Below are positions 1,601-23,843 of a stretch of DNA of 64,000 bases, piece after piece. Source of the DNA: an uncultured Chloroflexia bacterium (GTDB lineage: Bacteria > Chloroflexota > Limnocylindria > Limnocylindrales > CSP1-4); assembly GCA_963725875.1 (NCBI GenBank), contig CAVRZZ010000003.1, positions 336,817-400,816 on the forward strand, in the 5' to 3' direction. A model generated the notes under the pieces. The model did not search any database. It saw only the letters and a program-made list of their open reading frames with translations, and was not told where the DNA came from. How positions within the stretch are numbered: position 1 is the first letter of the stretch; every line of letters begins with the position of its first letter. The position numbers and the translations under genes were made by a program.

Positions 1601-1612
1601 GCCCGTGGGGGC

Positions 1613-3660: not shown

Positions 3661-3999
3661 TCAGTGCCGGAAGCCCGCCGCGGCGTACGGGTCGACGAGC
3701 GGCTCGCGCTGGCGTTCGAGGCGCGGCAGCTGCCGCTTCAGGTCCGCCAGGAACAGGTCGGCCACGTCGTGGCTGAAGCCGCGCTTCACGACCACCCGCA
3801 GCGCGGCGAGGTCGGTCCGGTTGGCCGGGAACGTGTACGCCGGGACCTGCCAGCCGCGCTCGCGGACGGCGTTCGAGACGTCGAAGGCCGAGAAGTTCCG
3901 CACGTCGTCCCGGAGCGTGAAGGCGAAGACGGGCAGCTCGTCGCCGCGGGTGAGCAGCTCGAAGGCGCGCGCTGGAGCCGGGGACAGGATCGCAGCCAT
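3661..3999 (-). pseudogene. Glutamate decarboxylase C-terminal fragment (about 110 aa remnant)
   Basis: 'RGWQVPAYTFPANRTDLAALRVVVKRGFSHDVADLFLADLKRQL' matches the GadA/GadB C-terminus 'RLRGWQVPAFTL...RIMCRRGF...'. Upstream in the same frame is low-complexity, so only the last ~110 of ~460 aa are present. Confidence 0.55.
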
Positions 4000-4175
4000 C
4001 GAGCGGGGCGGCGACCGGGCCGGGCGGCCGTTCGGGGAGGACGGCCATCCAGGCCCGGTCGCCGCGGGAAGCCCCGCAGGGGGCGTCGACCATGGCGCCG
4101 ACACGATCGGCCGCCATGCCCGTTCTCGCTCCGGGCACCGGGCAGACGGCGTCGGCCTGGCGGTGGCGGGAGTGA

Positions 4176-6147
4176 TCACCTCCAGGCGGTGACCGTCCCG
4201 CTGCTCGCGGATACGCTGCCGCCGGCGTAGAAGTAGACGGTGTAGGTCCCTGGCGGCCGTGAGGTCGTCGCGGCGCTGAAGCTCTTCTTCCTGCCCGAGG
4301 AGGTCGCGAGAGCACCCGACGGCGGGCTCCGACGCACCGGGTTCGCGCCCCCGGCAAACGGGTTGCCGGCGTAGACGGCCAGGGTGCCCTGGACTGTCGT
4401 GGGCGTCGTCCATGTTGCGCTCACGGGTCCGGCGGCGGTGCTCGTGACCGTGTACCAGTACCCGTAGCCAGTGCCGAGACCCGGGACCGACACCTGCGCG
4501 GACGTGGGCCCAGGCGTGGGCGTCGGGGTCGGCGTGGGCGTCGGCGGTCGGCGTCGGGTCGGGTGTCGGGGTCGGCGTCGGGTCGGGTGTCGGGGTCGGC
4601 GTGGGCGTCGGGGTCGGCGTCGGGTCGGGTGTCGGGGTCGGCGTGGGCGTCGGGGTCGGCGTCGGGGTCGGGGTCGGGGTCGGCGTCGGGGTCGGGGTCG
4701 GCGTCGGGGTCGGCGTGGGCGTCGGCGTCGGACCGGGTCCGCCCCCGAGTGCGTTGTGCGCCGCGAGGACATCGAGGCGGCCATGGCCGTAGCTGCTGTC
4801 CGCGCCGGCAGCTCCCAGGTCGCGCGCGGCATCGGTGAGCGCCGCCGACTGGGCGGCCGGGCTCATCTCGGGATGGGCGCTCAGCAGGAGCGCAAGGGCT
4901 CCGGCGACGTGCGGCGCCGCCATGGAGGTTCCCGTCGCCGACTGGTACGTGCCGAAGAGGTCGGCCGTGCGGATCTTCACCCCCGGGGCGACGATCTCCG
5001 GGTATGTGGTGGATGCTTCGCCGCACGCCGACGGGCCGCGGCTCGAGGTTGCGTCAATGACGTCGGTGATCTTCGTGTCGCCCACGGCGAGCGCTTCCGG
5101 GTAGTTCGCCGGGCTGACGCTCGTCGAGGCGCCGGGGCCGTAGTTGCCGGCCGCGAAGACCGGCACGATCCCGGCTGAGAGCAGCGCCTGGAGGTCCGGC
5201 TGGAAGGCCAGGTTGCAGCCCGGCGTGCCGTACGCCCACGAGTTGTTCACCACCTCGGGAGCGTCGGCCGTGGCAGGGTCGCCGTCCGGGTCGAGCACCC
5301 ACTGGAAGGCGGCGTGGATGGCCGTGGCGGTCGCCGTACCACTGTCGTTGAAGATCTTCGCGGCGATCCAGGTAGCCCCCGGCGCCATGCCGATCGACGT
5401 CCCGCCGGCGTCGCCGCCGACGATCACGCCCATGGTGGCCGTCCCGTGGCCGCTCAGGTCGGTCGGCACGCTCGGATGCTGGCCGTAGGGATCGAACCAG
5501 GAATCGGCGCCGCCGCGCCAGCGGCCCGCGAGGTCCGGGTGACCGACGTCCACGCCGGAATCCAGGTTCGCGACGACCACGCCCTGGCCGGTGTACCCGA
5601 GGGCCCACATGGCTGGCGCGTTGACGAGCGCGACGTTGGGCTCGTTGGGCGCCGACGACATCGGGTCCACTGGTGCCGGCGCGCGTGGCGCAACGGCCCC
5701 GGCGGGCACGATGGGGATCTCATCGGGGGTGACGCTGGCCACGTCGGCCCGCGCCGCGATCTCCGCGATCACGTCGGGCGTCGCCGTGACGGACAGCCCG
5801 TTGAAGATCCAGAAGGGCGTCTGCCAGGCGACGCGGCCCTGCGCCGCGCGCAGGCGGAGGATCGCCAGCAGCAGACGCTGCGACGCGAGGGCGTGGTCGC
5901 GGAGTGCCCGGATGACGGCTGCCAGCCGAGTTCTGCGGTCGGCCCCGCCGATCGACTGCAGGTCGGCTCGCGTTCGCATTGTGACGATGACCGTGGACAT
6001 TCCGGCCGGCGTGGACCCGCCGGCCGGAGCGTCGGTGAACGTGGCCGGGCCGCGGACGCCCTGGACCGAGGAGTTCGTGCTCGCGGCCACGGGCACGGCC
6101 GAGACCAGCAGGACGGCCCCCAGGGCCAGGGCGATGATCCGCCGCAT
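4176..6147 (-). CDS. Secreted subtilisin-like (S8) serine protease with PT-repeat linker and C-terminal beta-rich domain; apparent frameshift inside the PT linker
   Basis: Signal peptide 'MRRIIALALGAVLLVSAVPVAAS'. S8 catalytic blocks 'VVVANLDSGVDVGHPDL', 'HGTATMGVI', 'GTSMAAPHVAGALALL'. A long (PT)n tract follows. The C-terminal domain ('GYGYWYTVTSTAAGPVSATW...TYTVYFYAGG') is in a different frame (ORF 4176..4832), so a frame change near ~4520-4560 is needed to join them. Confidence 0.75.
4540..4745 (-). repeat. GC-rich dinucleotide-codon repeat encoding the (Pro-Thr)n linker
   Basis: Plus strand is a (ggcgtcggggtc)n-like repeat. It reads PTPT in one minus frame and RRPRRP or DADP in the others. 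Confidence 0.8.
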
Positions 6148-6160
6148 CGGGAATCTCCTG

Positions 6161-6739
6161 TCAGCTCTGGGCGTCGAGGGGCGCCAGGCGAACGCTGCCG
6201 ATCACGACGGACACCGAGGTGCCGCGCTGGATCGCGCCGCCGGGGTTCGGGTAGAGGATGAAGTAGTTGCCACCGTCGAGGAGCGTGACCTTGTGCCGCA
6301 TCCCCGTCGGCGCGCGGACGACGGCCCCGCTCGACTCGACGAACAGCTCCGGCATGGCCGTCGCGTCGTGGAGGACGTGGGCCGCCTTCTCCTTGTCGGT
6401 GACCGTGAAGCGCAGGTCGATCATGCCCCCGGCCGCGCTGACCGCCACCAGGTTGACCCTGATGCCGTAGTCCTGCTCCATCTTCGCCGCGGACACGACG
6501 CGCGCCGCGGCGACATCGGCATCGGATTCGAGGCCGGTTCCCGCCGACCACGTCAGGCCGGCGGCCACGGCCATCGGCAGGATGAGGACGGCCGCGAGGG
6601 CCGCAATCCAGGTCCGTCGCCGCATGCCGCGTGGTGGGGTGGCCCCGGCCGGCTCGGGCGGAGCCGGCACGGGACCCTGGGCTTCCGGGACCGCAGCCGC
6701 GAGGCTGCGGTCCCGCTCGGAACGCTCGATGCTCGTCAT
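6161..6739 (-). CDS. Hypothetical membrane-anchored protein
   Basis: Single TM stretch 'WIAALAAVLILPMAVAAGL'. Sits between the Ig-repeat protein (4-nt gap) and the S8 protease (13-nt gap). The start may be the internal ATG near 6625. Confidence 0.45.
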   Translation of the reverse strand: MTSIERSERDRSLAAAVPEAQGPVPAPPEPAGATPPRGMRRRTWIAALAAVLILPMAVAAGLTWSAGTGLESDADVAAARVVSAAKMEQDYGIRVNLVAVSAAGGMIDLRFTVTDKEKAAHVLHDATAMPELFVESSGAVVRAPTGMRHKVTLLDGGNYFILYPNPGGAIQRGTSVSVVIGSVRLAPLDAQS

Positions 6740-6743
6740 GGCA

Positions 6744-9668
6744 CTACGGCCCGAAGAGCGGCGACACCGATCGCTTGGAGGCGAAGGCGTCGAAGTACAT
6801 CAGGATGCTGCTGCCGCCGCTGGTGACCGAGCCCAGGCGGACCGCTCCCACGGAGCCCGCGCTGGTCGTGGCCAGCGTCTGCGACACCGCACCATCGACG
6901 TAGAGCGCGAGCGTGCCCGGGTTGGGGCCGACGCTGCCCACGGCCTGCCACACCACCTCGATGCGGTGAGCCGCGTTCGTGACGTTGACCCACGCCGGGT
7001 TGGCAGTGGCGCCCACCTGGATCTGCACCTGCGTCTGCCCCGCACTGAGGCGGTACCGAACGTGGAACAGCTGGGTGCCGAAGGTGTTGGACGTCGCAGC
7101 AGCGAGGATGTCCTGGCCGCTGGACGCATTGGCACGGGGATTGAAGGAGAACTGGGCGTCGTACGTCGGCCATGCCGGGTTGGCGGCCGTGCCGAAGTTG
7201 TACTGGACGTAGTTGGTGTTGTTGCCCTGGGCCTGCAGGCCGCGGGCGCCAACGAGCGCCGCTGCAGTCGACACATTCAGGCGGTTGGTCGTGTTGGTGG
7301 ACCGGCTGGTCCAGCCCCACGGGGCGCCGCCCGTGTCGAAGCCGTTCGAGAAGATGGCGACCGCGACGAGGGACACGGTCGCGCTGCTGGTGGTCGTGCT
7401 CCAGTTGCCCGCCGCGTCACGGACGCGGACGCCCACCGTGTGGTTGCCCGTGGTGAGCGAGCCCGCAGGGATGGCGGCGGCCAGGCCGGCAAAGGGCGTC
7501 CCTCCGCCCGGCGCCGGAGCGGCCGTGTCGATCCAGTACTCGCCGCCGGCAACGCCGCTAGCGAGGCCCGCGACGGGCGGGTCGGCAGCGCCGTCTACCG
7601 TCACGTTGATGCCGCCACCGAGCGTCGGGTTGACGGCCGCAAGGGTGATGCCCGTGAACGTGGGCGCGGTCTTGTCGATGAGGAGGACGACGGAGGCCGT
7701 CGCACCCCAGTTGCCCACCGCGTCCCTGCCGTGGACGTAGATCGTGTGGTTGCCGGCAGTGAGCAGGTCGATCGTGGTGAGCGGGACGTCGGCGTAGCCG
7801 GTCTCGCTCGCGGCATTGAAGACGCCGTCGTTGGCGACGAACGGGAAGCCGGAGCCGTTGGCGCCGACGGTGTCGATGAAGCCCTCGCCGGCGGCGACGG
7901 TGCTGGTGGCGCTGCTGAAGGCCGCGCTGACGCGCACCGACGGGTTGCTGGTGCTCTGACCGTATTGCCCGTTGTTGGCGGCGGGCGGGTTGGTCACGAC
8001 GCCCGAGGTCGTCGGACCGGTGGCCACCACCTCCAGGGTGATCGTGGTGAAGGGACCCCAGTTGCCCGCTGCGTCCTGGGCATGGACCGAGACCACGCCG
8101 CTCTGGCCGGCCGGGATGGTCGCCGAGAGGCTGACGATCGGGGCCGTGTTGTTGCGAGCCACGGTGATGCCGGTGCCGTTTGCACCCGGCGTGCCGATGA
8201 AGTACTCGGCCGCGACAACGTTGCCGTTGCCGGTGGCCGCGTCGCTGGCGGTGCCACTGAGGGCGACGGAGACGGTCCCGCTGGACGGGTTCGGGTTGAG
8301 CACGAGCGCGCTCGTGGCGGGACCCGTCGTGTCGATCGTGAAGTTGGTGGAGCTGAAGGCGCCCCAGTTGCCAGCGGAGTCCTGGCCGTGGACGTAGACG
8401 GCATGCGAGCCGCTCGACAGCGAGCCGAGCGTGATCGAGGCGTTGACCGAGGCGGTCGGCGACCCGAACGTGCCCGACATCGCCGTGCCCGACCCAGCCG
8501 CGCCGGTGGTGTCGATGAAGTACTCGGCGCCCGTGACACTGCTATTGCCCGTGTCGACGTCGCTGACCGAAGCGGCCAGGGCGCCGGACGAGACGGTGAA
8601 GGCCACACCGCTCGTGAGCGGACCGACGGTGTCGCCCGTCGACGAGCCGCTCGGCGCGGCGTCGATGAAGGCGAGCATCCCGCCGATCCCGGACGCGGTG
8701 CTGTTGTTCAGGGTCATGCTCGCGTCGTAGATCGCGTACTTGGTGGAGACCGCGGTCGTCGCCGGAAGCGTCACGAGCACGTCGGCCGTCTGGCCCGGGG
8801 CGATCGTCTCGGCGACCATTCCCCGCGGGACGATCGGGCTGCCGTCCGCGGCGAGCACGGACTGGCGCAGGCCGAGCACCCCGATCGAGTGATGCTGGAT
8901 CCCCGCGTTGGCGTAGCGCAGCAGGAGCCTGTTGCCGGAGGTCACGTTGATCGCCGGGGCCGTGCCGGAGTACGCCACGCCGTTGAGCAGTGAGTACTTC
9001 GGCGCGAAGTACCGCAGGTCGACGGTCCACGGCGTGAGACTGTTGTTCAGGGTCGGGTCGACCTCACCGAGGACGACCATCGCCTCGTCACTGAACGCCG
9101 TGGCGGCATCGGCGTAGGCCTGGCCGGGAGCCCCGGCCGGCTGGACGACGAGGACGCCGTACAGGCCCATCGCCACCTGGTACTCCGAGCCGGGGATGAG
9201 CCCGGCCTCGTAGAGGTAGGTCCCGGGGGCGCCGGCGACGAATGTGTATGACGTGGAGCCGCCCGCCACCACCCCGGTCAGGTCCGGAGCCATCGCCTGG
9301 CCGTCGAAGAGGATCGACGTCGGCCGGGCAAGGTGGTTGACCAGGTTGACGGTGACGGTGTCGCCCGCGGTGGCGACGAGGACGGGACCCGGCAGGGTCG
9401 GGCTCCCGCCGTCGGTGGCGCTGAAGCCCCAGACCGTGACGTTCGCCGGTGTGCCGGGCAGCGCAGCGCCGGTAAGGCTGCCGGTCTCGGCCCACAGGTT
9501 GCAGGTGACGGTCACCGGCGTGGCACCGCCGGGAGCCGAGCACGCCGTCGAGGTGATCGGCCCGGCGGCAGCCGCCGCCCCCGGGATCAACAGCGCCGCG
9601 ACGAGCAGCGCCGGACCCAGGACCAGCGAGGAGAGGAGGGTTCGCTTCATCGTTCGATCCGATCTCAT
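6744..9668 (-). CDS. Secreted multidomain protein: N-terminal multicopper-oxidase-fold region, about five Ig-like repeats, C-terminal LamG/ConA-like domain
   Basis: ATG at 9668 has an SD (GAGGTAGGGGA) and a signal peptide 'MRSDRTMKRTLLSSLVLGPALLVAALLIPGAAAAA'. The N-terminal region resembles MCO domains but has no HxH copper motifs. Repeats of 'GAEYFIDTTG...HAVYVHGQDSAGNWG' follow. The C-terminus is Asn/Thr-rich and beta-rich. Confidence 0.75.
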   Translation of the reverse strand: MRSDRTMKRTLLSSLVLGPALLVAALLIPGAAAAAGPITSTACSAPGGATPVTVTCNLWAETGSLTGAALPGTPANVTVWGFSATDGGSPTLPGPVLVATAGDTVTVNLVNHLARPTSILFDGQAMAPDLTGVVAGGSTSYTFVAGAPGTYLYEAGLIPGSEYQVAMGLYGVLVVQPAGAPGQAYADAATAFSDEAMVVLGEVDPTLNNSLTPWTVDLRYFAPKYSLLNGVAYSGTAPAINVTSGNRLLLRYANAGIQHHSIGVLGLRQSVLAADGSPIVPRGMVAETIAPGQTADVLVTLPATTAVSTKYAIYDASMTLNNSTASGIGGMLAFIDAAPSGSSTGDTVGPLTSGVAFTVSSGALAASVSDVDTGNSSVTGAEYFIDTTGAAGSGTAMSGTFGSPTASVNASITLGSLSSGSHAVYVHGQDSAGNWGAFSSTNFTIDTTGPATSALVLNPNPSSGTVSVALSGTASDAATGNGNVVAAEYFIGTPGANGTGITVARNNTAPIVSLSATIPAGQSGVVSVHAQDAAGNWGPFTTITLEVVATGPTTSGVVTNPPAANNGQYGQSTSNPSVRVSAAFSSATSTVAAGEGFIDTVGANGSGFPFVANDGVFNAASETGYADVPLTTIDLLTAGNHTIYVHGRDAVGNWGATASVVLLIDKTAPTFTGITLAAVNPTLGGGINVTVDGAADPPVAGLASGVAGGEYWIDTAAPAPGGGTPFAGLAAAIPAGSLTTGNHTVGVRVRDAAGNWSTTTSSATVSLVAVAIFSNGFDTGGAPWGWTSRSTNTTNRLNVSTAAALVGARGLQAQGNNTNYVQYNFGTAANPAWPTYDAQFSFNPRANASSGQDILAAATSNTFGTQLFHVRYRLSAGQTQVQIQVGATANPAWVNVTNAAHRIEVVWQAVGSVGPNPGTLALYVDGAVSQTLATTSAGSVGAVRLGSVTSGGSSILMYFDAFASKRSVSPLFGP

Positions 9669-9685
9669 GGTCGTTCCCCTACCTC

Positions 9686-11089
9686 TCATTGCGGACAACT
9701 GTTGGGCAGGGGCGGATCGACCCGCGTGTAGGTGATCGGCCCGGTCATGTTCACGCCCCACGACGTGATCTGGTAGAGCGCGTGGTTGTGGGCGATGATG
9801 TAGAACTCGCCGCACTCGTTGAGCGTGGAGATGCCAGGCGGCATCGGCTCCGTGACGCCCAGGTACGGGCTGCCGCTGTAGAACATGCCGACGGTGAGGT
9901 TCTGCAGGTTCGGCTCGCTGGCAGGCACCGGGTTCGCCGGCGAGTAGTCCTCGTTGTCCCTCCAGTTGAACAGCACGTCCCAGGTCTGGCCGGGGCCGAT
10001 GTTCACGGAGAACTTGTCGAAGGACATGTCCTGGCCGGTCGGACCCTCGAGCGGTGCGCCGTCGCGGCCGATCACCTTGCCGTTGTTCCCGTGCGGATGG
10101 AACGGGTAGTCCTCGGTCCCGACGGACAGGTAGCGGTCGAGGGCCGGATCGGGGTTGGCCGCCGCGTCGTACGGGTGGATCGTCGCCAGCGAGCCGTACG
10201 GCTGGCTGGGCAGCCACGAGGCGAAGTTGTCGGCGATGCTGTCGGGGAACCCGCGGCCATTGATCAGCCAGTAGCGCGGGTGGTAGGTGTTCATGTTGAA
10301 GGCCTTGGTGCCCTTCAGGACCGCAGCGTTCAGGTACGGGTCGATCTCGGAGAGCAGGACCAGGAACTCGGTGTCAGGGTTGAACTTCGAGTCGACCCGG
10401 TCGTTGGCCCAGTCGGGGTGGTCCGCCGGCCGCACGATCAGCGCTCCGAAGAGGCCCATGCGCACCTGCACCTGCGGGCTCGAGAAGAAGCTCGAGCCGC
10501 TGGTCCGCTGCCCGCCGCCGCTCTCGTAGAGGAACGTGCCGGGCTTGGAGGCGACGAAGCTGTAGGTGACCGTGCCGCCGCCCGGCTGCGCGGCCTGCGC
10601 GAGCGAGGTGAGCGCCCCGCCGACGAACTGCGGCTGTGAGGGCACGCCGTCCGCGGTGACGTTCTCCTGGCCCGGGAAGATGATCGACACGGCCGGCGCG
10701 CTCTTCGGCGACGACGTCGTGAACGCGTTCTTCAGGATGACCGTGACGGTGTCGCCCTCGGTGACGCACAGCACGGGCCCCGGGTGCTGGAAGGGCCGGC
10801 TGCCCTCCGAGAAGCCCCACATGTACGCCGTGGTCCCGTCCGGCAGGTTGATGTACCCCGCCTTCGTCGTCAGCGTGAACGTCGGGTTCGGGCCGGCGCT
10901 TGTCGTGCAGGCGATGCCGGTCCGGTTCGCGGACTCCGTGGCCGCCAGGGTCGGCCGCACGGCCGCCGACGACAGCAGCACGCTGGAGACCAGGACCGAC
11001 GAGACCGCGAGCGCCAGCGCCGGGTGGGCGCGCGGGCGCGAGAATCGTCTCATCGTCATCACTCCGCTCTTCGCAAACGGTCTCATCAC
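9686..11089 (-). CDS. Multicopper-oxidase-like protein with degenerate copper sites
   Basis: 467 aa. A TAT-like 'MRRFSRP' is followed by a hydrophobic signal. The domain-1 HWHG position reads 'SIIFPGQ'. Domain 3 has 'HPFHPHG' and 'AHNHALYQ' in place of HCHxxxH, so the T1 Cys is Asn. Start ATG overlaps the upstream gene's stop (ATGA). Confidence 0.75.
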   Translation of the reverse strand: MMRPFAKSGVMTMRRFSRPRAHPALALAVSSVLVSSVLLSSAAVRPTLAATESANRTGIACTTSAGPNPTFTLTTKAGYINLPDGTTAYMWGFSEGSRPFQHPGPVLCVTEGDTVTVILKNAFTTSSPKSAPAVSIIFPGQENVTADGVPSQPQFVGGALTSLAQAAQPGGGTVTYSFVASKPGTFLYESGGGQRTSGSSFFSSPQVQVRMGLFGALIVRPADHPDWANDRVDSKFNPDTEFLVLLSEIDPYLNAAVLKGTKAFNMNTYHPRYWLINGRGFPDSIADNFASWLPSQPYGSLATIHPYDAAANPDPALDRYLSVGTEDYPFHPHGNNGKVIGRDGAPLEGPTGQDMSFDKFSVNIGPGQTWDVLFNWRDNEDYSPANPVPASEPNLQNLTVGMFYSGSPYLGVTEPMPPGISTLNECGEFYIIAHNHALYQITSWGVNMTGPITYTRVDPPLPNSCPQ

Positions 11090-12519
11090 AGGCCCCAGTC
11101 GTTCGGGTACTTCTGGGGTGCCAGGGCGGCGTTCGCCGGGTAGACGTGCACCTCGGTGCGCTGGCCCCCGCCGCCGGCCAGGTTGTCGGCCCGGATGTAC
11201 GTGCGGTTGTAGAGCACGTACGTGTCCGGGCCGGTCCCGCCCGAATGGGCCGGTGCCGTGAAGATCGCGTCGAAGCTCTCGCCGGCGCCCAGGGCGACGG
11301 TGTTCGTGGCGTAGCTCGAGTCGGTGTTGTCGCGGCCGCGGAGGTGGGTCGCGTCCCGGCCGACGACGTGCAGCTTGATGCCGGTGAGCGTCATCGCGGC
11401 TTCCTTGAAGCCGAGGTTGGCGAACCGCAGGAGCACCCGCTCACCCGCCTTGCACGTCACCAGGGACGACATCGGCTGGTTTCCGAGGTCGGCGCTCCGC
11501 GGCCCGGCCGGCGGGGTCAGGTCGTAGCTGCCGTCTCGCACGACCTCGTACGGGTAGGTCGCGTTCGGCAACCCGGTGTCGGAGAAGATCGCCCCGTTCG
11601 GCTCCAGGGTGTCGGGATAGACCCGCCCGTTGAGGAGGCTGAAGTCGGCGTGGTAGTCGCTCCACTCGGGGAGCTGGATGTGGGCGTCGGCCCAGTGGGC
11701 CTCCGCCCAGAGCTCGCTCAGGAACATCGCGTACTCGCGATCGAAGGCCGTCGACGCCGGATGGTTGACCCCGACACTGTCGTTGTAGACGTATCCGAGC
11801 GGGGCGCCCGGAGCCAGGTTGCCCCCGAGCCGGGCGACCGGTGCTCCGGCCGAGTTCCCCTGCTGGTCCTGGGCCGGCCGCACGAAGACGAGGCCGGTCA
11901 TCCCCATGTGCACGTGCTCCACGTCCTCGACGTGGCAGTGGAACATGTAGGTGCCGGGGTCGTGCGACTTGTACACGTAGGTGAAGGTCTGGCCCTGGGG
12001 GATCGACACCGAGCCGGTCGGCTCGCCGTCGAAGAACGGGATGACGTTCTTGAAGCCGTGCCAGTGGAGGGTGTGCGCGTCGAACAGGTCCGGGCGCTGG
12101 GCCAGGCCCACGTTCGTCAGCTGGATCCGGAACGTCGTCGGCGCGTACTCCGTGCCCAGAACAGCGGGGCGGAGTGCTGCGCCTTGTTCTTGAGCTGGTA
12201 CTGGTCGCCGTCGGGGAGGCCGTTCCGTTGGCGAACCCGAAGATGTAGTCGGTGCGCTTGGGCGGCGCGTAGGTGTCCGGGTGGAACACGCCGTAGGCGG
12301 CGGAGCTGATCGCTCGGGTCGGGCGGCAGGGAGATCCAGCCGTCCGTGCCCGACGAGCTTCAGGTCGGGTGGCCGGTCGGCCGCGAGGGCCCGGCCCGGC
12401 TGGAGGATGGTCCCCACCAGCCGGGGCCCGAGGCCCACGGCGGCGGTCGCCGCCGCGGTCAGCCCTCCGTACTTGAGCAGGTGCCGCCGGCTCAGCAGCA
12501 ACCTTCTCTGGTCGCTCAT
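11086..12519 (-). pseudogene. TAT-secreted multicopper-oxidase-like protein with apparent frameshifts in its N-terminal region
   Basis: Clear TAT signal 'MSDQRRLLLSRRHLLKYGGLTAAATAAVGLG'. Contains 'HTLHWHGF' and 'FHCHVEDVEHVHMGM' (HCH...H...M-like). Between ~12120 and 12340 plausible MCO sequence ('TDGWISLPPDPS', 'AYGVFHPDTYAPPKRTDYIFGFANG', 'QHSAPLFWA') sits in the other two frames. At least four frame changes are implied. This could equally be indel sequencing error. Confidence 0.6.
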
Positions 12520-12570
12520 GACGTTCTCTCCCTCGGCGACGATTGGACGGGTGGTTCGCGATCAGGCGTC

Positions 12571-15480
12571 TCACGGCAGGGTCCCGCCGCTGAAGTTGTC
12601 GACCCGGGCGTCGGCCGGGAGCTGGATGCCGATCCGGCCGCCGCCGGTGCCGAACGTCCAGGCGCCCGCGCCGGTGGTGGGGATGGTCACGGTGCCGACC
12701 AGCGTCGTGGTGGCGCCAGACGTCTTCCAGACGTTGACCGTGCCGGTCTCGAGAGCGACGGCAGTGAGCGTGTCGCCGATCGCGAACGTCGCCGCGAACG
12801 TGGCGCGGCGTGGTGAAGAGCGCACCGCTGTTGGTCGTCGTGGACACACGACCACGCTGCCGGTCCCGCGTAGCCCACGCGGATGAAGTTCGTCGGGTTG
12901 TTGGCCGTGCCGCCGCTCGCCTTGAGGATCAGGGTCGCTCGGGATGTTGCCGCCGACCGGCGCGTTGGCGAACGTGAACGCCGCGCCCTGGTGGGCCCCG
13001 AAGCCCGCGACCGCCGTTCCAGATCGCCTGGCCGAGCGCAGGTTCGCGAACGCCTGGTTGCCGTTGACCCGGATGCGGCGGCGCCGAGCGAGGTTCGACC
13101 TGGCTCCAGTTCGCGCCGAGCGTGTTCGCGTTGGCCCGGTTGAAGTTGTCGAGGATGGACATCGTCGGCAGCGGCGAGTCGGCGGCACGATCGTGTCCGT
13201 GTCGGTGGCGCTGTTGTTGGCCGCGGTCGGGTCGGTGATGCCACCCGGCGCCGCGACGGTGGCGGTGTTGACCAGAGTCCCGGCCGCGCTGGCGGAGAGC
13301 GTGGTCGTGGCGGTGAAGGTCGCGCTGCCGCCGTTGAGCAGGGTGACCGTGCCCGGTGCGGCTGTTGCCGCTGCCGGCCGCGGTGCAGCTCGACCCGGCC
13401 GAGGCCGTGCAGGTCCAGGTGCCGACGGTGAGCGACGGCCGGGAACGTGTCGGTCACCGGCGCGCCGTGACGGCCTCGGACCGGCGTTCGAGACGACGAT
13501 GGTGTAGCGTGACGGCGCCGCTCCGGCGGTGACGCTCGTCGCCCCGTCGGTCTTGGTGATGGAGAGGTCGGCCGACGGCGGGCGCGGCGATCTCGTCCGC
13601 GCCGACGTCGAAGCCTCCGAGTCGCCGGGCGAGCCTGGCCGTCGATGTCAGCGGTGGGTGCGGCCAGGGGCGTGGGCGGCTGCTGGTAGGCCGGCACCGC
13701 CTTGCTCGCCGCGCCGGCGTTGTACGCCGGCGACCCGGTGCTGAGGAGGTGGTAGTCGCCGAGGAGGCTCGGCGGGAGGTCGGCGGCGACGAGGATCGCG
13801 CCGACGAAGTTCGGGTTGGTCCGCCACGGGGCGAACGCCGAGCACCGTGTCGTAGGCGGCGACGACGAGCGGATCGGCCGACCGAGTTGGTCGGGCTCGA
13901 GGCGTACGGCGTTCGTGCCCGTCGTCTCTGCTGGAGGACCGAGTTGGTCGGCGACAGCAGGATCGCCGCCGTCGGCGACGCCGAGGTCCCAGTGGTTGGC
14001 GTCGGTCCGTCGCCGATGCCGGTCACGGCAGCGCCGAGCGCGGGTGCCCGCCCGGTTGTCCCAGAAGATGTTGTTGAAGAGCAGCGGGTTGCTGAAGAGC
14101 GGCGAGCCGGCCGGCAGCGTGGCCTGGAGCAGGGTGCTGTTCTGGCCGGTCGACAGGCCGGCCGGGGCCGGCTGAGCCGTTGCTGGTCACGGCCGTGGCG
14201 GTCGTGACGTTCTTCATGATCGTGTTGTTGTAGAACCGCACGTTCGGCGCGTCGTCGAGGGCGATGCCGCCGCCCTCGTGGGTCGACACGTTGTTGACGA
14301 TCATGTTGTTGTAGACGTTCATCGGGAAGTTGCCGGCCATCAGGAACCGGATCCCGCCGCCGTCGTCGTTGGCCAGGTTGGCCTGGATCAGGTTGTCGTA
14401 GATGTCGACCGGGCCGGAGCCCGGCGAGAGCGATCGCGGGGTCGGCCGGCAGCTCGCCGGCGACCATGATCCCGCCGCCCTCGTCGTACGACTGGTTGTA
14501 GTAGATCCGGTTGTCGGTGGATCGGAGCCGTTCGGGCTGAGGCCGTAGACGGACGAGGCCGCCGCCGTACTCGGCCGAGAAGTTGCCGCAGATGTCGTTG
14601 CCGGCGACCTCGTAGTTGTCGGCGCCGGCGAAGAGGCCGACACCGCCGGCCAGGTTGGTGCCGGCGTTGGCGATGATCCGGTTGTTGAGCGATCCGGACG
14701 TCCTCGTTGTGGTTGTTGGTGTCCGGCGCCGGCAGGTCCGGCGTCCCGATGCGGATCGTCCCGTACGTGCCGCCGTTGTTCTGGACCACGTTGTTCGTGA
14801 TCTGCAGGTTGCGGGCGTAGGCGTTGGCGAAGATCGCGCCGCCCTGGGTGACCAGGCCGGCCGGCAGGCCGGTGGGCCCGCCGCCGATCTCGTTGATGTT
14901 GCCGGGGAAGCCCTGCTGGTCGCCGCCGCGGAGGTCGAAGCCGTCGATCGACGGCGCCGTGGTGGCGCTGTAGGTGGCCGGGAAGGCATTGCGCCCGGCG
15001 CTCGGCACGAAGATCGAGATCACCGCGCCGTCGTAGACGGTCTGGTTGCCGTCCCACGTCAGGGCGCCGATCTTGGTGTACCAGTCGGTCAGCCACGGGG
15101 CTGTCGCCGCCGAAGGCGCCGCCGTCGATGATCGAGCCGCGCACGGTTGCCGTCGGGGCTGCCCGGGCCGACGCCCTGCAGCTTCACCTTGCGCGGAGAT
15201 GATCAGGTTCTCGTAGTACGCGCCGCGCGGGTTCTGCCGCGGGTTGGCGCTCGGGTTGTTCGGGTAGACCACCACCAGGGCGTCCCGGTTGTTGCCTCCC
15301 GCCACGTACGAGGCCGCGGCGTCCAGCGCGCGCTGGATCGCGTGGTCGGCCGCGGCCGGGAGCGTCTCAGCCGGCGTGAACCACCGCCCTGCGCTTGCCT
15401 TGGCCGCTGTGTAGCTCGGGTTGCTGGTCGGACCCACCTCGAAGAGCTGCGGGTTGTAGGACCCGCCGAATTCGATAGAA
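12571..15480 (-). pseudogene. Fragmented continuation of the upstream giant adhesin, or a separate gene: parallel beta-helix (NosD-like) repeats plus LamG-like C-terminal domain, broken by multiple frame changes
   Basis: Protein-like stretches are spread over all three minus frames: 'SIEFGGSYNPQLFEVGPTSNPSYTAAKASAGRWFTPAETLPAAADHAIQRALDAAASYVAGGNNRDALVVVYPNNP' (ORF 14388..15437), 'GPVDIYDNLIQANLANDDGGGIRFLMAGNFPMNVYNNMIVNNVSTHEGGGIALDDAPNVRFYNNTIMKNV' (ORF 14023..15144), 'RIIANAGTNLAGGVGLFAGADNYEVAGNDICGNFSAEYGGG', 'SILDNFNRANANTLGANWSQ' (ORF 12929..13162), and 'TVNVWKTSGATTTLVGTVTIPTTGAGAWTFGTGGGRIGIQL' (ORF 12571..13188). They are separated by Arg/Pro-rich nonsense. Confidence 0.5.
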
Positions 15481-18400
15481 GGTGAGGCCGTTGACCGTGC
15501 TCTTGCCGTTGGCGGACGTCACCTTCAGCTGGTGCGGACCCTGGCCGACGGACGGCGAGATCGTCGCGGTCACCGTGATCTGGGTGTCGTTCCACGTGGC
15601 CGTGGTGATCGGGGTGCCGTCCAGCGTCAGCTGGCCGGTGCCCTTGGCGGCGCCGAAGCCCCGGCCGTAGATCGTGAACGCCGGCTGCGTGCCGGTCGTG
15701 TACGGCCGCGAAACCGCATAGAGCTCCGGGGCGCGGGTCGCGGCAGTGCCCGCCGGGTCGTTCACCGAGCAGGAGACCGCCTGGAACGTCGTGGTGCCGG
15801 GCAGCTGGATCGTCACGCCGACCTGGGTCGGCGCCGTGTCGGCCGGGACGATGATGCCCGGCCAGGCCTCGAAGTCGGCCGCGATCGTCCGGAACTGCGG
15901 GTTGTAGTTGGGGTTGAGCCGGCCCGGGATCCCCGGGTCGTTGCCGACGAAGCGGTAGACGTTGCCGCACACGCCCGACGGGGTCGGGCAGTTGATCCGG
16001 TCCGTCGACGGCAGGAGGACGTCGAACAGGCCGTTGTAGTCGGTCTCCACCGTGGTGATCAGGCGGTTGGCGAAGTCGTAGATGCCGACCGGGGTGAACG
16101 GAAGGCCCGCCTTCTCACCGTAGAGCAGCGACTTCGGGTCGGTCGAGAAGTTGAGGTCGTCGACGTTGTAGGCGAAGAAGCGGCCCGGGAGCGGCACGTC
16201 GGTGAAGACGTTGAACATCGGGACGACCGACTTGCCGTTCTGGAGCGTGACGAGCTTCGTGTCGCACAGCGGCTTGGCCTGGCCCTCGAAGGGCGAGCCG
16301 CCGAGCCGGTCGGCGAACGTCGGGTTGTCGGTGGGCGTCGAGGCAGCCACGGCGACCGTGGCGCTGCCGATGCCGGACGGGTCGACGATCGTGGTCGCCG
16401 GGTAGACGTCGATGCCGGTGGGGTCGTTCGCGACGTCGACCTGGTGCAGAGGGCCGACGCACGCGGGCGGCGGGACCTGCGGGACGAAGCTGTCGCCCGT
16501 CGCGATGTTGATGTCCTCTTCGCGGGTGACCTTGTAGACCGGATCGCCGTTGTTGTCCGTCACGCCCGGGAGGTCGACATGGACGAGGTAGTCGGCCGCG
16601 GGGAGCGCCGTGAAGGTGCCGCCGACACAGACCGGGTTGGCCGGGTCGGTGGCGTCGAGCGTGCCGTCGAAGCAGCCGTCGCCGAAGCCGTAGTTGCCGT
16701 CGACGGCGGCGCCGAAGTTGGCGTCGGCGGTCCCCTGGTCCGTGGCGTACGTCCCGAACTGGACGCCCATCAGCGGACCCTCGAGGCAGCCCTTGCCGTC
16801 GCCGACCGGCAGGACCTGCTGGTCCGCCGGGTTGGCGAGAGGCGTCCCGTCGACGTCGCGGGCGATGCAGTCCGTCGGCCGCTGCCAGGTCTCGGTGACG
16901 TACGTGTTCAGGAGCTTGCCCTGGGCATACGACCCGTCGGCCGGGTTGAGCGCGTAGTCGCCGTTCGCGTCGCACGGCACGGTGCCGTACTCCGGGCTGC
17001 CTTCGAGCGGGCAGTCGACCGGGGCGTAGAGGTTGACCGTCAGCCCGGAGACGCCGGGCTGCCAGTCCTCCGCCGCCGCGTACCGCGGATCGAGCTCGTT
17101 GCGGGTCGTGTCGTAGCTGACCGATCCGACGATGCCGCCGTTCTGCGGGTCGACCCCGTTCGCGCCGGTCGGGTCGTAGGCATGGACACCCCAGTCGAGG
17201 GTGCCCGAGAGGCCGATGATCGGCAGGACGCTGACGTCGACGCCCGCACCGAGCACGGTCGTGGGCGTCGGCTGGTTGTCGGCCTGGTAGGTGACGCCGG
17301 TCGTGTAGTAGCGATCGTCGTAGGCCTCGAGGACGAGCCACTCCGTCAGCGGGTAGGCGTTCTCCATCACGTAGTAGCCGCTGGCGTTGGTGGTGACCAG
17401 GGTCGCGCCGCGATCCATCAGCGAGTTCTCGCGCTTGCGGAGCGTCAGCGTGATGTTCGGGACGCCCTGCTCTCCGGCGTCGCGCCGTCCGTTGCGGTTC
17501 GCGTCGTTGAAGACGTAGCCGTCGAACTTGGTGAACCAGCCGGTCAGGGGCCGGACCCCCATGTCGACGGTCTCGCCGTTGGCGACGGTCACGTTGAGCA
17601 GGTCGAGGATGTAGTTCTGGGGCTCGTCCCAGTACGTGATCGTGTAGCTGCCGGCGGGGACGTTCGGGATCGTGAACGTGCCGTCGGCGCCGCCGCGACC
17701 CATCCACACGGCCGTGTCGCCGTTGTTGAGGTCGGACAGGGTGATCCACGGCTTGTCGATCGGCTTGTCGACCTTGCCGCCGCAGAGGCCGCCCCAGATG
17801 GTGCCCGGCAGGCAGGCCCCGCCCGTGGTCGGGACGTAGACCTTCATGGCGTCGATGACGCCCTTGATCGTGCCCGTGCCTCCGGCCCACGAGTCGCCGT
17901 AGGACTTCGACGCGGTGGCGGGATGCGTCCAATGGCTGGCGGCCGGTCCCGGGACGAAGCCGAAGATCTGGGCCGGGAACGGCTCGCCGGCGACGACGAA
18001 CTCCGTGTCGAGGCCGGTCGAGCCCTCCATCTCCCAGGCGTCCCAGTCGTGGTTGCCCTCGAGGGTCGTCGTCTGGACCCAGTTCGAGCCCGTCGGCGGG
18101 ACGGCGGACAGGGCATACCGGTTCGGCCCCAGGTTCGGGATCGTCAGGAGGCCCGGGTCGAGCTGCGGGTCCGAGTAGAGCACGCCGTCGGTGCCGGTCC
18201 AGGTGTTCGTGCTCGGGTGGTAGGTTGCGTCGACGACGCCGTCCATGTTGATGTCGCCGGACAGGCACTTGCCGCCCAGGTGGGTGACGATCGGCGCGTT
18301 GTCGGCGTCGAGGACGATCTCGTCGCCCGGGTCCTGGACCCCGTTGTTGTTCAGGTCGTTGAACTGGTACTTGGTGCACAGCGGGTTGCCGAAGACGTCG

Positions 18401-19125
18401 GTCGTGACCTGCCCGATGTAGTCCGCGATGAAGCCCTGGAACCCGGTCAGGCCGTCCTCGCCGGGGTCGTACTGGCCGTTGGCCGAGGTGATGTCCGCGA
18501 AGACCTGCGCCTTGATGGTCGCGGTCGGCAGGGGGCTCGGCTGCAGGGGCACCTCGACCACACCGGGTGCCTCCATCGGGATCGTGAACGGGGTCCCGTC
18601 GAGCTTGAATCCGTCGGCCAGCACGGAGATGAGGTACCGGCCCGGCGCCAGGTTGGAGATCCCGGTCGTGGTGTTGAGGGTCGTCTCGTCACCCTGCGCG
18701 GCGACCGGCGCGGAGCTCGCAAGCCCAGCGATCGAGGTCCACGTGCAGGAGTCCGGGTAGGCGGTGTTTGGCTGCGTATGGGCCGCGTCGAGCCACGCGG
18801 AGCAGTCCCCGCCCGGGTTCGCGTTCCGCGCGGTGTTCTGGCCGGTGTTGTCCTTGTTGATGATCCACTTGTACGTCGCGACGGGGTCGCCCTCGGTCAC
18901 GCCGGCGCCGCCGAGCGCCCTGGGCTCCGTGCGGGCGGCCTTGACCGCGAGCTTGATGGTGCTGGTCGGGGCGGCCGGCGCCGCCGCCGGGGCGGCGGCG
19001 GTGGTGATCGGAGCGGCCTGTGCCACCGGCACGGCCAGCTGCGTCACGATCATCGCCGCGCTGGCGAGCCAGATGCCCAGGAACCGGAGCGTCCGGTGCC
19101 GCTGGCCAAATCGCGAATGACCCAT
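15367..19125 (-). CDS. Giant secreted cell-surface protein with SdrD-B/CnaB-type and carboxypeptidase-regulatory-like repeats (adhesin-like)
   Basis: ATG at 19125 has an SD (GGAG 9 nt upstream) and a signal peptide 'MGHSRFGQRHRTLRFLGIWLASAAMIVTQLAVPVAQAAP'. One uninterrupted ~1250-aa frame with Asp/Asn/Gly/Thr-rich beta-repeats such as 'FDGYVFNDANRNGRRDAGEQGVPNITLTL' and 'TFTIPNVPAGSYTI'. The frame stops at 15367. The +1 frame continues from ~15475 ('...LTF|SIEFGGSYNPQLF...') into beta-helix sequence, which suggests a frameshift into the next feature. Confidence 0.75.
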   Translation of the reverse strand: MGHSRFGQRHRTLRFLGIWLASAAMIVTQLAVPVAQAAPITTAAAPAAAPAAPTSTIKLAVKAARTEPRALGGAGVTEGDPVATYKWIINKDNTGQNTARNANPGGDCSAWLDAAHTQPNTAYPDSCTWTSIAGLASSAPVAAQGDETTLNTTTGISNLAPGRYLISVLADGFKLDGTPFTIPMEAPGVVEVPLQPSPLPTATIKAQVFADITSANGQYDPGEDGLTGFQGFIADYIGQVTTDVFGNPLCTKYQFNDLNNNGVQDPGDEIVLDADNAPIVTHLGGKCLSGDINMDGVVDATYHPSTNTWTGTDGVLYSDPQLDPGLLTIPNLGPNRYALSAVPPTGSNWVQTTTLEGNHDWDAWEMEGSTGLDTEFVVAGEPFPAQIFGFVPGPAASHWTHPATASKSYGDSWAGGTGTIKGVIDAMKVYVPTTGGACLPGTIWGGLCGGKVDKPIDKPWITLSDLNNGDTAVWMGRGGADGTFTIPNVPAGSYTITYWDEPQNYILDLLNVTVANGETVDMGVRPLTGWFTKFDGYVFNDANRNGRRDAGEQGVPNITLTLRKRENSLMDRGATLVTTNASGYYVMENAYPLTEWLVLEAYDDRYYTTGVTYQADNQPTPTTVLGAGVDVSVLPIIGLSGTLDWGVHAYDPTGANGVDPQNGGIVGSVSYDTTRNELDPRYAAAEDWQPGVSGLTVNLYAPVDCPLEGSPEYGTVPCDANGDYALNPADGSYAQGKLLNTYVTETWQRPTDCIARDVDGTPLANPADQQVLPVGDGKGCLEGPLMGVQFGTYATDQGTADANFGAAVDGNYGFGDGCFDGTLDATDPANPVCVGGTFTALPAADYLVHVDLPGVTDNNGDPVYKVTREEDINIATGDSFVPQVPPPACVGPLHQVDVANDPTGIDVYPATTIVDPSGIGSATVAVAASTPTDNPTFADRLGGSPFEGQAKPLCDTKLVTLQNGKSVVPMFNVFTDVPLPGRFFAYNVDDLNFSTDPKSLLYGEKAGLPFTPVGIYDFANRLITTVETDYNGLFDVLLPSTDRINCPTPSGVCGNVYRFVGNDPGIPGRLNPNYNPQFRTIAADFEAWPGIIVPADTAPTQVGVTIQLPGTTTFQAVSCSVNDPAGTAATRAPELYAVSRPYTTGTQPAFTIYGRGFGAAKGTGQLTLDGTPITTATWNDTQITVTATISPSVGQGPHQLKVTSANGKSTVNGLTFYRIRRVLQPAALRGGSDQQPELHSGQGKRRAVVHAG

Positions 19126-19193
19126 TGCCTGGTACTCCTCGTTCCTGATTGCCCGTCGAATGCCGGCCCCGGAGGCGCGGCGGTCACCTGTGC

Positions 19194-19841
19194 TCATCGA
19201 TCGCCTCCGGCGTGGGTGGTTCCCGCGGTCGCGGGAGACTCGAACGGCCCATCCGACGCGGCCAGCGCCGGTGCGGATGCCTGGGCCGGGTGCATGGATG
19301 GGGCCGCCCGCCACGCGCCTCGCCAGGGCATGCCGGCGAGCAGCGAGATGGGGGCGAGGACGAGAACCGCCGCCTCCAGCGCATACAGGGCGTCGGCCGC
19401 GAGGTCGTCGAGGAGGCTGACGCCCGCCTCTTCCTCTGCGCCGAACAGCAGGCCGTGAAGCTGGTTGCCGGGGATGCTGAGGGCGGCGAACAGCAGTGCG
19501 GCGAGCACCCCCCAGAGGGCCATGGTCGTCAACGACGCGCGCTCCCCCGGCTCCGTTGGTCGGAGCCTGGCGACGAGGAGCGCGGCGATGACGACCGCGA
19601 CGGCCCCGAACGGCACGGCCAGCGCCGTGTCACGGAGCCAGTGCAGAACTGGCGGCAGCTCGTGGTGCTCGTGCACGCCCGCGTGGACGAGCTGCAGAAG
19701 GGCGATCGGCACGGCCGCGAGCAGCCACGCGTACACGACCACCCGGCCCGGCAGCAGGCGGAACCCCGCGCCGGCAGAACCCTCGCCGGGTTCAGGCGCG
19801 CGAGCGCGGGCGTCGACCTGGTCCATCATCGTCGCGGTCAT
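19194..19841 (-). CDS. Hypothetical polytopic membrane protein
   Basis: 215 aa with about four hydrophobic TM segments. Lies directly upstream of the giant adhesin on the same strand. No recognised domain. Confidence 0.4.
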   Translation of the reverse strand: MTATMMDQVDARARAPEPGEGSAGAGFRLLPGRVVVYAWLLAAVPIALLQLVHAGVHEHHELPPVLHWLRDTALAVPFGAVAVVIAALLVARLRPTEPGERASLTTMALWGVLAALLFAALSIPGNQLHGLLFGAEEEAGVSLLDDLAADALYALEAAVLVLAPISLLAGMPWRGAWRAAPSMHPAQASAPALAASDGPFESPATAGTTHAGGDR

Positions 19842-21790: not shown

Positions 21791-22099
21791 TGCCCGCGAC
21801 GAACCGCGCAGCAACCACCCCGTCTCGCCACGTCCGGTCGTGGCCGGCCCACCCAGGCGCAACCTGCAACTCCCCTGCGCCGCCGCGGCTCACCCGGCAG
21901 GTGGCCCCCCGGCCACCGTCGGCGCCGGGTGTCATCCGCGGCGGTATCGCACGTCCGGATGCTGCACGCGCCGGGGGGCAGTGAGCATCGGGGCCGCTCT
22001 GCATTCGACCCCGGGTGGGGCCCCGGAACCCGCCGCGGCTCGACCCGGTTTCGCTGGGGGTCAAGACCTGAGGCCGTGGGCCCGAAGCGGGCCGACGCC

Positions 22100-23580: not shown

Positions 23581-23843
23581 CCGAATGCTCCTCCATTCCC
23601 GCGACGACTGAGCCTCCCCTGGCTCCCGGCCACCCAGCCTGTCGACCGCCACGGGTCTGCGGCCGACCTCCCCGCCGAGTCCCAGGCAAGCCCACTCCGA
23701 CGGGTGGCCGCAAGGATCGGGTGGGCTGGACACGGCGTCTATAGTCGTCAACGACCATTCGGAAGGTCCGCGGCTTGGTCACGGTGGGGTGGGACGACAG
23801 GCGGTGCCGGCGGCCGAGCCGGCCCGCTCGATGGGGGCGCACG

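Follow-up and report, generated by a model that had tools for sequence, protein, structure and literature searches.

We describe an operon on the minus strand of contig CAVRZZ010000003.1 from an uncultured Chloroflexia bacterium (positions 336,817 to 400,816, a stretch of 64,000 nucleotides that we call the window), in which three consecutive genes, here M1, M2 and M3, encode two-domain multicopper oxidase (MCO) paralogs. M1 carries the motifs predicted to hold a type-1 copper and one half of a trinuclear copper cluster, M2 carries those predicted for the other half, and M3 keeps the fold without any ligand set. We consider it likely that M1 and M2 combine into one active oxidase. With slightly better than even confidence we further propose that all three make up an obligate 1:1:1 heterotrimer M1·M2·M3, docked on a giant secreted protein (G) of the same operon, with one type-1 and one trinuclear centre across two subunits. 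The three genes and their putative copper motifs are listed below, aligned to the two-domain enzymes of Nitrosomonas europaea (PDB 3G5W) and of a metagenome (2ZWN).

11086 to 12519, minus strand: M1, two-domain MCO subunit (Pfam Cu-oxidase_3, Cu-oxidase_2 and Cu-oxidase).
12055 to 12075, minus strand: M1 motif HTLHWHG, 100% in 120 homologs, aligned to HTIHWHG in domain 1 of 3G5W.
11899 to 11940, minus strand: M1 motif HCHVEDVEHVHMGM, its H, C, H, H and M 100% in 120 homologs, aligned to HCHVNVNEHVTMRGM of 3G5W.
9686 to 11089, minus strand: M2, two-domain MCO paralog with a Sec-type signal (Pfam Cu-oxidase_3).
10088 to 10102, minus strand: M2 motif FHPHG (H331, H333), 100% conserved and present in 61-63 of 65 distant representatives, aligned to IHTHG in domain 2 of 3G5W.
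9779 to 9793, minus strand: M2 motif AHNHA (H434, H436), 99% conserved and present in 58-59 of 65 distant representatives, aligned to FHDHV in domain 2 of 2ZWN.
6744 to 9668, minus strand: M3, 974 amino acids (Pfam Cu-oxidase_3, Cu-oxidase and Big_13).

Ligand conservation was followed in the best 120 homologs each of M1 and M2, which are 58-86% identical to the window proteins; M1 residues are numbered after correction of the reading frame. In M1, the pattern H-x2-H-x-H plus H-C-H-x5-H-x4-M lies entirely in domain 1, and each of H152, H155, H157, H197, C198, H199, H205 and M210 is found in 100% of the 120 homologs. The first His of HTLHWHG is predicted to be a type-1 ligand and the other two to bind the trinuclear cluster. 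In HCHVEDVEHVHMGM, the type-1 Cys would stand between two cluster His and be followed by the type-1 His and, five residues on, by the axial Met. Domain 2 of M1 has no conserved His in the 120 homologs. Further invariant histidines of M1 are H79, H115, H278 and H283, and the VEDVEH loop of the type-1 site is acidic and invariant. By sequence, domain 1 is closest to 3G5W (1.9e-11), then to 2ZWN, and the motifs align one to one. Domain 2 of 3G5W has HAIHTHG and HDH in this alignment; domain 2 of M1 has MTLTG and YNR. Like type-C MCOs, M1 possesses two cupredoxin domains, of which the first holds the type-1 site, but it lacks the two HxH motifs that type-C enzymes carry in domain 2 of the same chain and that make a homotrimer possible. 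The AlphaFold2 (AF2) model of an M1 ortholog (P0001) reached a predicted local distance difference test score (pLDDT) of 81.9 and a predicted template modelling score (pTM) of 0.81. Its best folds are 2ZWN, 3G5W and the Arthrobacter enzyme 3GDC (E 1e-20 to 2e-17, target TM 0.70-0.73), and the fold search ranks copper nitrite reductases after these type-C MCOs.

M2 shows the opposite picture. H331, H333, H434 and H436, predicted to be trinuclear-cluster ligands, are conserved in 99-100% of 121 homologs, and no conserved ligand was found in domain 1 of the same set. The distant check listed above used 65 full-length cluster representatives of 36-60% identity. Searched alone against 177,635 PDB sequences, domain 2 of M2 gave two matches only, namely the second domains of 3G5W and 2ZWN; in these alignments HPH is placed on HTH and HNH on HDH. 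An earlier note on this DNA, made without database searches, had taken HNH for a degenerate HCH that lost its type-1 cysteine. The right comparison is with type-C two-domain MCOs, whose domain 2 normally carries H-x-H without cysteine (HDH in both 3G5W and 2ZWN); HNH is therefore the expected motif and no HCH has been lost.

M1 and M2 are paralogous over both domains (hhalign probability 97% each), and their losses are reciprocal. Where M1 has HWHG and HCH in domain 1, M2 has IFPG and YES; where M1 has TLTG (MTLTG) and YNR in domain 2, M2 has HPHG and HNH. A global hhalign comparison of M1 domain 1 with M2 domain 2 produced no alignment. Summed, the two proteins provide four type-1 and eight trinuclear-cluster ligands, and each is devoid of exactly what the other retains. 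No single polypeptide unites the eight cluster His: M1 has HWH and HCH, M2 has HPH and HNH, and M3 has none of them. Type-1 ligands occur in M1 only, being absent from M2 and M3. In M3, an N-terminal two-domain MCO fold is followed by Ig-like (Big_13) repeats and a C-terminal domain of ~190 amino acids, and the 82 sequences examined (a set gathered from 81 loci) share no conserved copper-ligand set. What the earlier note had read from the letters is thus borne out by the families: three MCO-fold paralogs, all matched by Pfam Cu-oxidase models; HWHG and HCH..H..M together in the N-terminal domain of the first, without a C-terminal HxH (120 homologs); no domain-1 HWHG in the second, which has HNH (99-100% of 121 homologs); and a third reduced to the fold with Ig-like repeats.

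Type-C two-domain MCOs are homotrimers, and each of their trinuclear clusters is shared by two adjacent subunits, of which one contributes domain 1 and the other domain 2. M1 and M2 resemble these enzymes (3G5W; mgLAC, 2ZWN; Arthrobacter 3GDC) in having two cupredoxin domains, a type-1 set in domain 1 and a Cys-free HxH pair in domain 2. In the known enzymes, however, one chain holds all twelve ligands and the homotrimer has three sites, whereas here two paralogs divide the ligands between them and the third has none, which predicts a heterotrimer with one site. In addition, the subunits are longer than type-C enzymes by ~130 amino acids, and M3 adds ~600 amino acids of Ig-like repeats. Judged from sequence, the system has the fold, and would have the chemistry, of a type-C two-domain MCO, yet the one-chain ligand set that defines this class is found in none of the three.

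NirK, the copper nitrite reductase, also has to be considered. It is a two-domain trimer with type-1 copper in domain 1 and another copper at the interface, and its structures rank high in the fold search and in sequence searches. One can imagine M1 as a homo-oligomer having a type-1 site and an incomplete or novel second site, NirK-like or of new chemistry, with M2 acting separately as a copper-binding protein or chaperone. Such an arrangement would agree with the close structural relation of M1 to NirK-type enzymes, which need fewer interface histidines, with the seemingly different export signals of M1 and M2, and with the lack of any M1-M2 fusion among the 50%-identity cluster representatives covered by our fusion search. 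However, the NirK site is a mononuclear type-2 copper with three His, whereas M1 and M2 together present eight His in MCO-type motifs. The His pattern of M1 is the HxxHxH plus HCH of MCOs and not that of NirK, scores for the NirK family are low (TIGR02376, 27-32 bits with a cutoff of 296), and domain 2 of M1 offers no conserved His to make up a type-2 site of the NirK kind. The four His of M2 occupy the positions of the type-C domain-2 cluster ligands, and M1 and M2 co-occur as strict neighbours (80 of 80 loci, see below). We therefore find this alternative improbable and return to the joint M1-M2 oxidase.

Ceruloplasmin and hephaestin offer another comparison. In these oxidases six cupredoxin domains are arranged in a ring that has its only trinuclear cluster at one interface, while the other interfaces are degenerate; M1·M2·M3 would arrive at the same architecture. 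In ceruloplasmin a single chain carries type-1 sites in domains 2, 4 and 6, whereas M1·M2·M3 would be three chains with a single type-1 site in a first domain. The Mnx complex of Bacillus (MnxG with MnxE/MnxF) is an operon-encoded hetero-oligomeric surface MCO, in which all ligands reside in MnxG and the partners are small and not of cupredoxin type. As far as the accounts accessible to us go, known heteromeric laccases likewise join a complete MCO to small non-cupredoxin subunits. Full-text literature searches yielded no description of a heteromeric or split two-domain MCO, nor of this operon. The two-domain MCO trimer of Nitrosopumilus maritimus, Nmar_1354 (PDB 9CCK), is called an ααα′ heterotrimer (PMC11761707); a single gene supplies all its subunits, which either have or lack an extra cupredoxin unit, and each of them has a full ligand set (PMC11761707); M1, M2 and M3 differ from it in this respect.

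The remaining genes of the operon were delimited as follows. G+C content of the window is 69-80%, so raw lists of open reading frames (ORFs) are crowded with spurious frames, and coding frames were picked by GC content at the third codon position (GC3).

19838 to 21862, minus strand: up674, the first gene of the block, up to 674 amino acids, with a signal or membrane segment (GC3 phase and ORF).
19194 to 19841, minus strand: TM215, a membrane protein of 215 amino acids (ORF and translation).
12571 to 19197, minus strand: G, a secreted protein of ~2,200 amino acids (alignment of the L004 ortholog and GC3 phase).
6161 to 6739, minus strand: sm, a single-pass membrane-anchored protein of 192 amino acids (ORF).
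4176 to 6147, minus strand: S8, a secreted subtilisin-like protease (Pfam Peptidase_S8).
5562-5548 (Asp), 5448-5437 (His) and 4932-4918 (Ser), minus strand: catalytic triad of S8 (motif reading).

Gene order is strongly conserved. In a one-genome-per-species collection, 330 related genomic stretches were found, and the best 80 of them were fetched with 10-kb flanks. M1 immediately precedes M2, and M3 immediately follows it, in all 80 loci and also in Cellulomonas sp. KRMCY2. G stands 5´ of M1 in 73 loci, that is, wherever the contig reaches that far. In 72 loci M3 is followed by sm and S8, the latter ending the operon. A CopC/CopD gene (CopCD) is inserted between sm and S8 in 42 loci, mostly of Actinomycetota; the window is without it. 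The overall order is therefore G-M1-M2-M3-sm-(CopCD)-S8, and KRMCY2 shows it intact, with proteins of 2,280, 438, 443, 986, 169, 619 (CopCD) and 1,011 amino acids. Relative to the window proteins, median identities are 63% (M2), 59% (M1), 56% (G), 49% (M3 fold) and 40% (sm), which is very high for surface proteins. Hosts belong to Chloroflexota (Chloroflexia, Caldilineaceae, Ardenticatenaceae, Anaerolineae, Limnocylindrales) and Actinomycetota (Cryobacterium, Cellulomonas, Nocardioides, Phycicoccus, Xylanimonas and others); a small number of Burkholderiales, "delta-proteobacterial" and Acidobacteriota genomes join them. Nearest to the window are uncultured Chloroflexia metagenome-assembled genomes (78-83% identity in M2). 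Three metagenome-assembled genomes hold two copies of the whole operon on separate contigs (L041/L063, L069/L080 and L043/L082).

Physical association of the subunits is suggested by gene fusions. Two proteins, P0242 (884 amino acids) and P0244 (1,156 amino acids), consist of M2, a linker domain and an M3-type fold; the M2 histidines are kept and there is no internal signal peptide. Three other candidates (P0270, P0284 and P0374) were rejected as read-through over frameshifts, since they contain out-of-frame stretches and, in two cases, an internal signal peptide.

A distant version of the operon, of ~30% identity, is located on second replicons of Cupriavidus metallidurans CH34, Ralstonia and Paraburkholderia. 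In CH34 and Paraburkholderia largidicola, the M1-like protein has HTVHFHG and HCHITPPEHLQMGM and the M2-like protein has HPFHEHG and WHSH, so that the ligands are split in the same manner. In both, the M3-type fold is fused to a G-type protein in one ORF of ~2,700 codons. A short gene occupies the position of sm and matches it in tblastn in P. largidicola; the corresponding 167-amino-acid ORF downstream in CH34 is sm-like by eye only, with no tblastn match. In an annotated Paraburkholderia record all these genes are "hypothetical protein". Each of the distant proteins best matches its own ortholog group, and hence the triplication and the ligand split are older than the separation of these lineages. 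On the CH34 chromid (L084, 6439-9177 and 21711-23903), secretin and pseudopilin genes lie just upstream of the operon and two paralogous proteins of ~270 amino acids downstream. The secretin and pseudopilin context suggests a dedicated type II-like export route.

These data bear on the possibility that M1, M2 and M3 are degenerate laccase-fold modules serving only structural or binding purposes on the cell surface, with no oxidase chemistry, which is how the earlier note had interpreted them. That interpretation fits M3, ligand-free and equipped with Ig-like repeats. It can also point to the absence of any single chain with the four canonical motifs and to the large secreted proteins encoded next to the MCO genes. 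It does not fit M1 and M2, which keep invariant complementary ligands: the twelve positions stay the same throughout the 120 and 121 homologs and can be traced down to ~30% identity in Burkholderiaceae, and the two half-sets are exactly complementary. Moreover, many versions of the operon have the CopCD copper importer embedded in them, and M2, with its median of 63%, is the most conserved operon protein. We consider a purely structural role of the three proteins very unlikely.

For the joint oxidase we propose the following model. As M1 and M2 together hold the ligands of one type-C chain, a single cluster would form at the interface of M1 domain 1 and M2 domain 2, with M3 as the ligand-free third member. 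Domain 1 of M1 would give the type-1 copper (His152, Cys198, His205, Met210) and cluster ligands His155, His157, His197 and His199; domain 2 of M2 would give His331, His333, His434 and His436. M3, with its Ig-like repeats, would close the six-domain ring. Electrons of the substrate would enter at the type-1 copper of M1 and cross the Cys-His bridges to the cluster, where O2 would be reduced to water. One-electron oxidations of the substrate would thus be coupled to four-electron reduction of O2, and each heterotrimer would have a single active site, as ceruloplasmin has. Since fusions join M2 with M3 and M3 with G, and the common metal site would join M1 with M2, we suggest that all of them belong to one complex. 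Signal peptides, the Cys pairs of G and the Ig-like repeats would make it an extracytoplasmic one. From gene linkage, G would be a physical partner, serving as scaffold, stalk or substrate-binding platform, and S8 probably matures the secreted proteins; CopCD of the Actinomycetota versions probably supplies copper. While folds, the ligand partition with its conservation, gene order and fusions can be read directly, what we infer is how the subunits touch, in which ratio they assemble, that they are catalytically active and what G, sm and S8 do. A metal ion, Fe(II) or Mn(II), is a plausible guess for the substrate, because of the invariant acidic VEDVEH loop, the further invariant histidines of M1, the axial Met and the extracellular location.

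Several points weigh against this model. Firstly, the heterotrimer is drawn by analogy with homotrimeric two-domain MCOs. Secondly, domain 2 of M2 finds its type-C counterparts specifically, though with weak E-values (0.02 and 0.12). AF2 modelled M2 poorly (pLDDT 51, domain 2 below 50, from a 34-sequence alignment), and this model was not used for fold search. Thirdly, an M1-M2 fusion, as mentioned, did not turn up. Finally, M1 has a putative Tat signal, whereas the signals of M2 and M3 resemble the Sec type. The M1 signal motif is SRRHLLK, its RR being invariant in 36 homologs (Pfam TAT_signal 20.1 bits, cutoff 22.7); the M1-like proteins of Burkholderiaceae have a Sec-type signal. If two export routes are used, the interface cluster would have to be assembled and loaded with copper outside the cell. 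To these points the state of the present copy must be added: about twelve frame disruptions in G, M1 and S8 would perhaps render it inactive, unless they are assembly errors.

About eleven of these disruptions fall within 12100-15500 (~3.5 kb), and the flanking 3.8 kb and 7 kb of the operon have none. G contains about six frameshifts (near 15440, 14685, 14480, 14120, 13630 and 13450), with GC3 phase shifts at matching places. Compared with four orthologs, M1 has single-base indels at ~12348, 12313, 12226 and 12153 and four extra bases at 12133-12136; these five sites scramble residues ~58-125, but they sum to +6, and so the frame is restored and the ORF stays open. S8 has one frameshift (~4550), inside a Pro-Thr linker. 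All M1 indels lie 5´ of the first copper motif and the motifs are shared by intact orthologs, hence the odd ligand patterns do not stem from frameshifts. Correction of the frames does not bring back canonical four-motif MCOs, the outcome that the earlier note had named as refuting its view, and the patterns stand.

The operon of this genome might nevertheless be a decaying pseudogene cluster, a relic with real indels. The high local density of disruptions at 12.1-15.5 kb, with one more in the S8 linker, would be in line with this, as would the position of the M1 indels outside long homopolymers and the annotation of M1 from the same genome in the database (P0006) as a truncated protein of 341 amino acids. 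On the other hand, we saw neither in-frame stops nor large deletions, the M1 frame is restored, and GC3 is high in each local frame. Shifted segments of G are 65-75% identical to the ortholog in five later segments, though lower in the C-terminal part. Similar breaks occur in related long contigs (in the S8 Pro-Thr linker in L004, and as a split G in L006), which fits long-read consensus errors. Because the shifted segments translate to high identity and related contigs are broken alike, we lean towards assembly errors and regard a relic operon as the less probable reading.

G is one gene. The ortholog of 2,349 amino acids from L004, the contig most closely related to the window, aligns along 19275-12574 in frames -2, -3, -1, -2, -3, -1 and -2, so the giant adhesin and the beta-helix/LamG pieces, listed separately in the earlier note, merge into a single gene of ~2,200 amino acids with about six frameshifts. 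Its domains are SdrD_B-like beta-sandwich repeats, IPT/TIG (Pfam SdrD_B and TIG), a right-handed beta-helix and a C-terminal domain; orthologs match DUF11, with NosD and Beta_helix below threshold, and many Cys pairs are present. No PDB relative was found by sequence, and database names are only "hypothetical" or "SdrD B-like". The label of SdrD/CnaB adhesin has to be withdrawn: there is a single SdrD_B-like stretch, and NCBIfam MSCRAMM_SdrD scores 20.8 bits with a cutoff of 2500. A median identity of 56% across phyla also makes G unlike fast-evolving adhesins. LamG, assigned earlier to M3 and to the end of G, found no Pfam support in either C-terminal domain. We also dropped the idea of a C-terminal module common to G and M3 (BLASTP E 0.79 between them). 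No block protein reached the cutoff of an NCBIfam model, and Pfam, run with its threshold relaxed, returned nothing for up674, TM215, sm and the C-terminal domains of G and M3.

Some observations concern M3 relatives. P0356 (696 amino acids, a metagenomic cluster representative) is a tandem of two ligand-free M3-type two-domain folds with no HxH motif. In several Chloroflexota relatives, a region homologous to the M3 C-terminal domain lies just 3´ of the S8 gene, namely in L004 (16617-17882), L006, L011, L041, L063, L071 and L080, and Ig repeats accompany such a region downstream of S8 in L006 and L012. In L004 the translated C-terminus of S8 resembles the M3 C-terminal domain by eye; the C-terminal domain of S8 in the window is different and much shorter.

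S8 itself is a subtilase (PF00082, 5.9e-42) with the triad DSGVD, HGTA and GTSMA. Its Pro-Thr linker runs from 4746 to ~4500, and a C-terminal domain of ~110 amino acids is reached only past the frameshift near 4550. ORF 3661-6147 on the minus strand continues beyond this frameshift into ~110 codons (3661-3990) that read, as we presume, like the C-terminal end of a glutamate decarboxylase, with no Pfam match. It resembles the remnant of a truncated gene bordering the operon on its 3´ side and may be the scar of an insertion or deletion.

The small membrane protein sm gave weak CcmE-like matches only, below threshold. Its conservation profile has no invariant Cys, His or Met, which leaves a role as copper chaperone unsupported. 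TM215 occurs only in Chloroflexia versions of the operon (5 loci, CopCD in 0 of the 5) and has a His-rich loop, HAGVHEHHE (HAGVHEHHELPPVLHW). It has no Pfam or NCBIfam match; we guess that it may be an alternative copper-handling membrane protein. Homologs of up674 are found near the operon only in L004 and L013, at differing positions, as expected for an accessory gene. A paralog of up674 is encoded 4 kb upstream (25902-27599, minus strand; 40% identity over 582 amino acids), and neither has a family match. Both share a …GHGNG… / …SHLCYASG… pair, which we take to recall the His/Cys dyads of clan-CD peptidases.

GC3 analysis and ORF lists show uninterrupted minus-strand coding from 21862 to 4176. 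The block of tightly packed secreted and surface-protein genes recognized earlier (19841-4176) is real, but it begins one gene further upstream, with up674. Reading the junctions directly, we found an ATGA overlap of 4 nt between up674 and TM215 (19841-19838). TM215 and G are joined by another ATGA overlap if G starts at ATG 19197, or separated by 68 nt if it starts at ATG 19125. The 51-nt gap between G and M1 holds the ribosome-binding site GAGGGAGAG. Where an ATGA overlap had been claimed between M1 and M2, the sequence is GTGA (4 nt) or TGATG (1 nt), depending on the start of M2 (11089 or 11086). A third candidate start, ATG 11053, used in the database copy P0121 (455 amino acids), would leave a gap of 32 nt. 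The gaps of 17 nt (M2/M3), 4 nt (M3/sm) and 13 nt (sm/S8) agree with those given before, and the M3 start, ATG 9668, is preceded by a ribosome-binding site. Promoter-like sites were absent from both strands inside the block and terminator-like sites from the minus strand, in a scan that is uninformative at the 72-78% GC of this genome.

Directly upstream of the block, after a gap of 237 nt, a HisKA_3 histidine kinase and a LuxR-type response regulator are encoded on the minus strand (22100-24968), and a second HisKA_3 kinase lies in the same region on the plus strand. Cellulomonas has an OmpR-type pair downstream of the operon instead. With different two-component pairs on different sides, a conserved regulator is not evident. 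Farther downstream (656-2923, minus strand) lie two adjacent genes, one for an ATP-grasp protein that has a pre-ATP-grasp domain of MvdD type (656-1600), the other for an astacin-family metalloprotease (1613-2923). MvdD-type ATP-grasp proteins are of the kind that serves maturation of microviridin/graspetide peptides.

Evolution of MCOs is explained by duplication and fusion of cupredoxin domains. To our knowledge, no living example of the steps between homotrimers with three sites and multi-domain oxidases with a single site has been found. If our assumptions are true, then M1·M2·M3 represents a living counterpart of the hypothetical intermediate that leads from homotrimeric two-domain MCOs to ceruloplasmin-like six-domain oxidases, and two genes can together encode one catalytic metal cluster. 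The family is large (3,126 M2 homologs in the database, ~3,000 M1 homologs in metagenomes) and yet missed by annotation: its members are labelled "multicopper oxidase domain-containing" or "hypothetical", and each subunit taken alone would be scored as an inactive oxidase. Copies in tractable Cupriavidus and Ralstonia and in cultured Cellulomonas, Cryobacterium and Nocardioides permit direct experiments. The system is common in Chloroflexota and Actinomycetota of soil and freshwater, and if it oxidises Fe(II), Mn(II) or phenolics, soils could harbour in this complex a widespread extracellular oxidase that has so far gone unrecognised.

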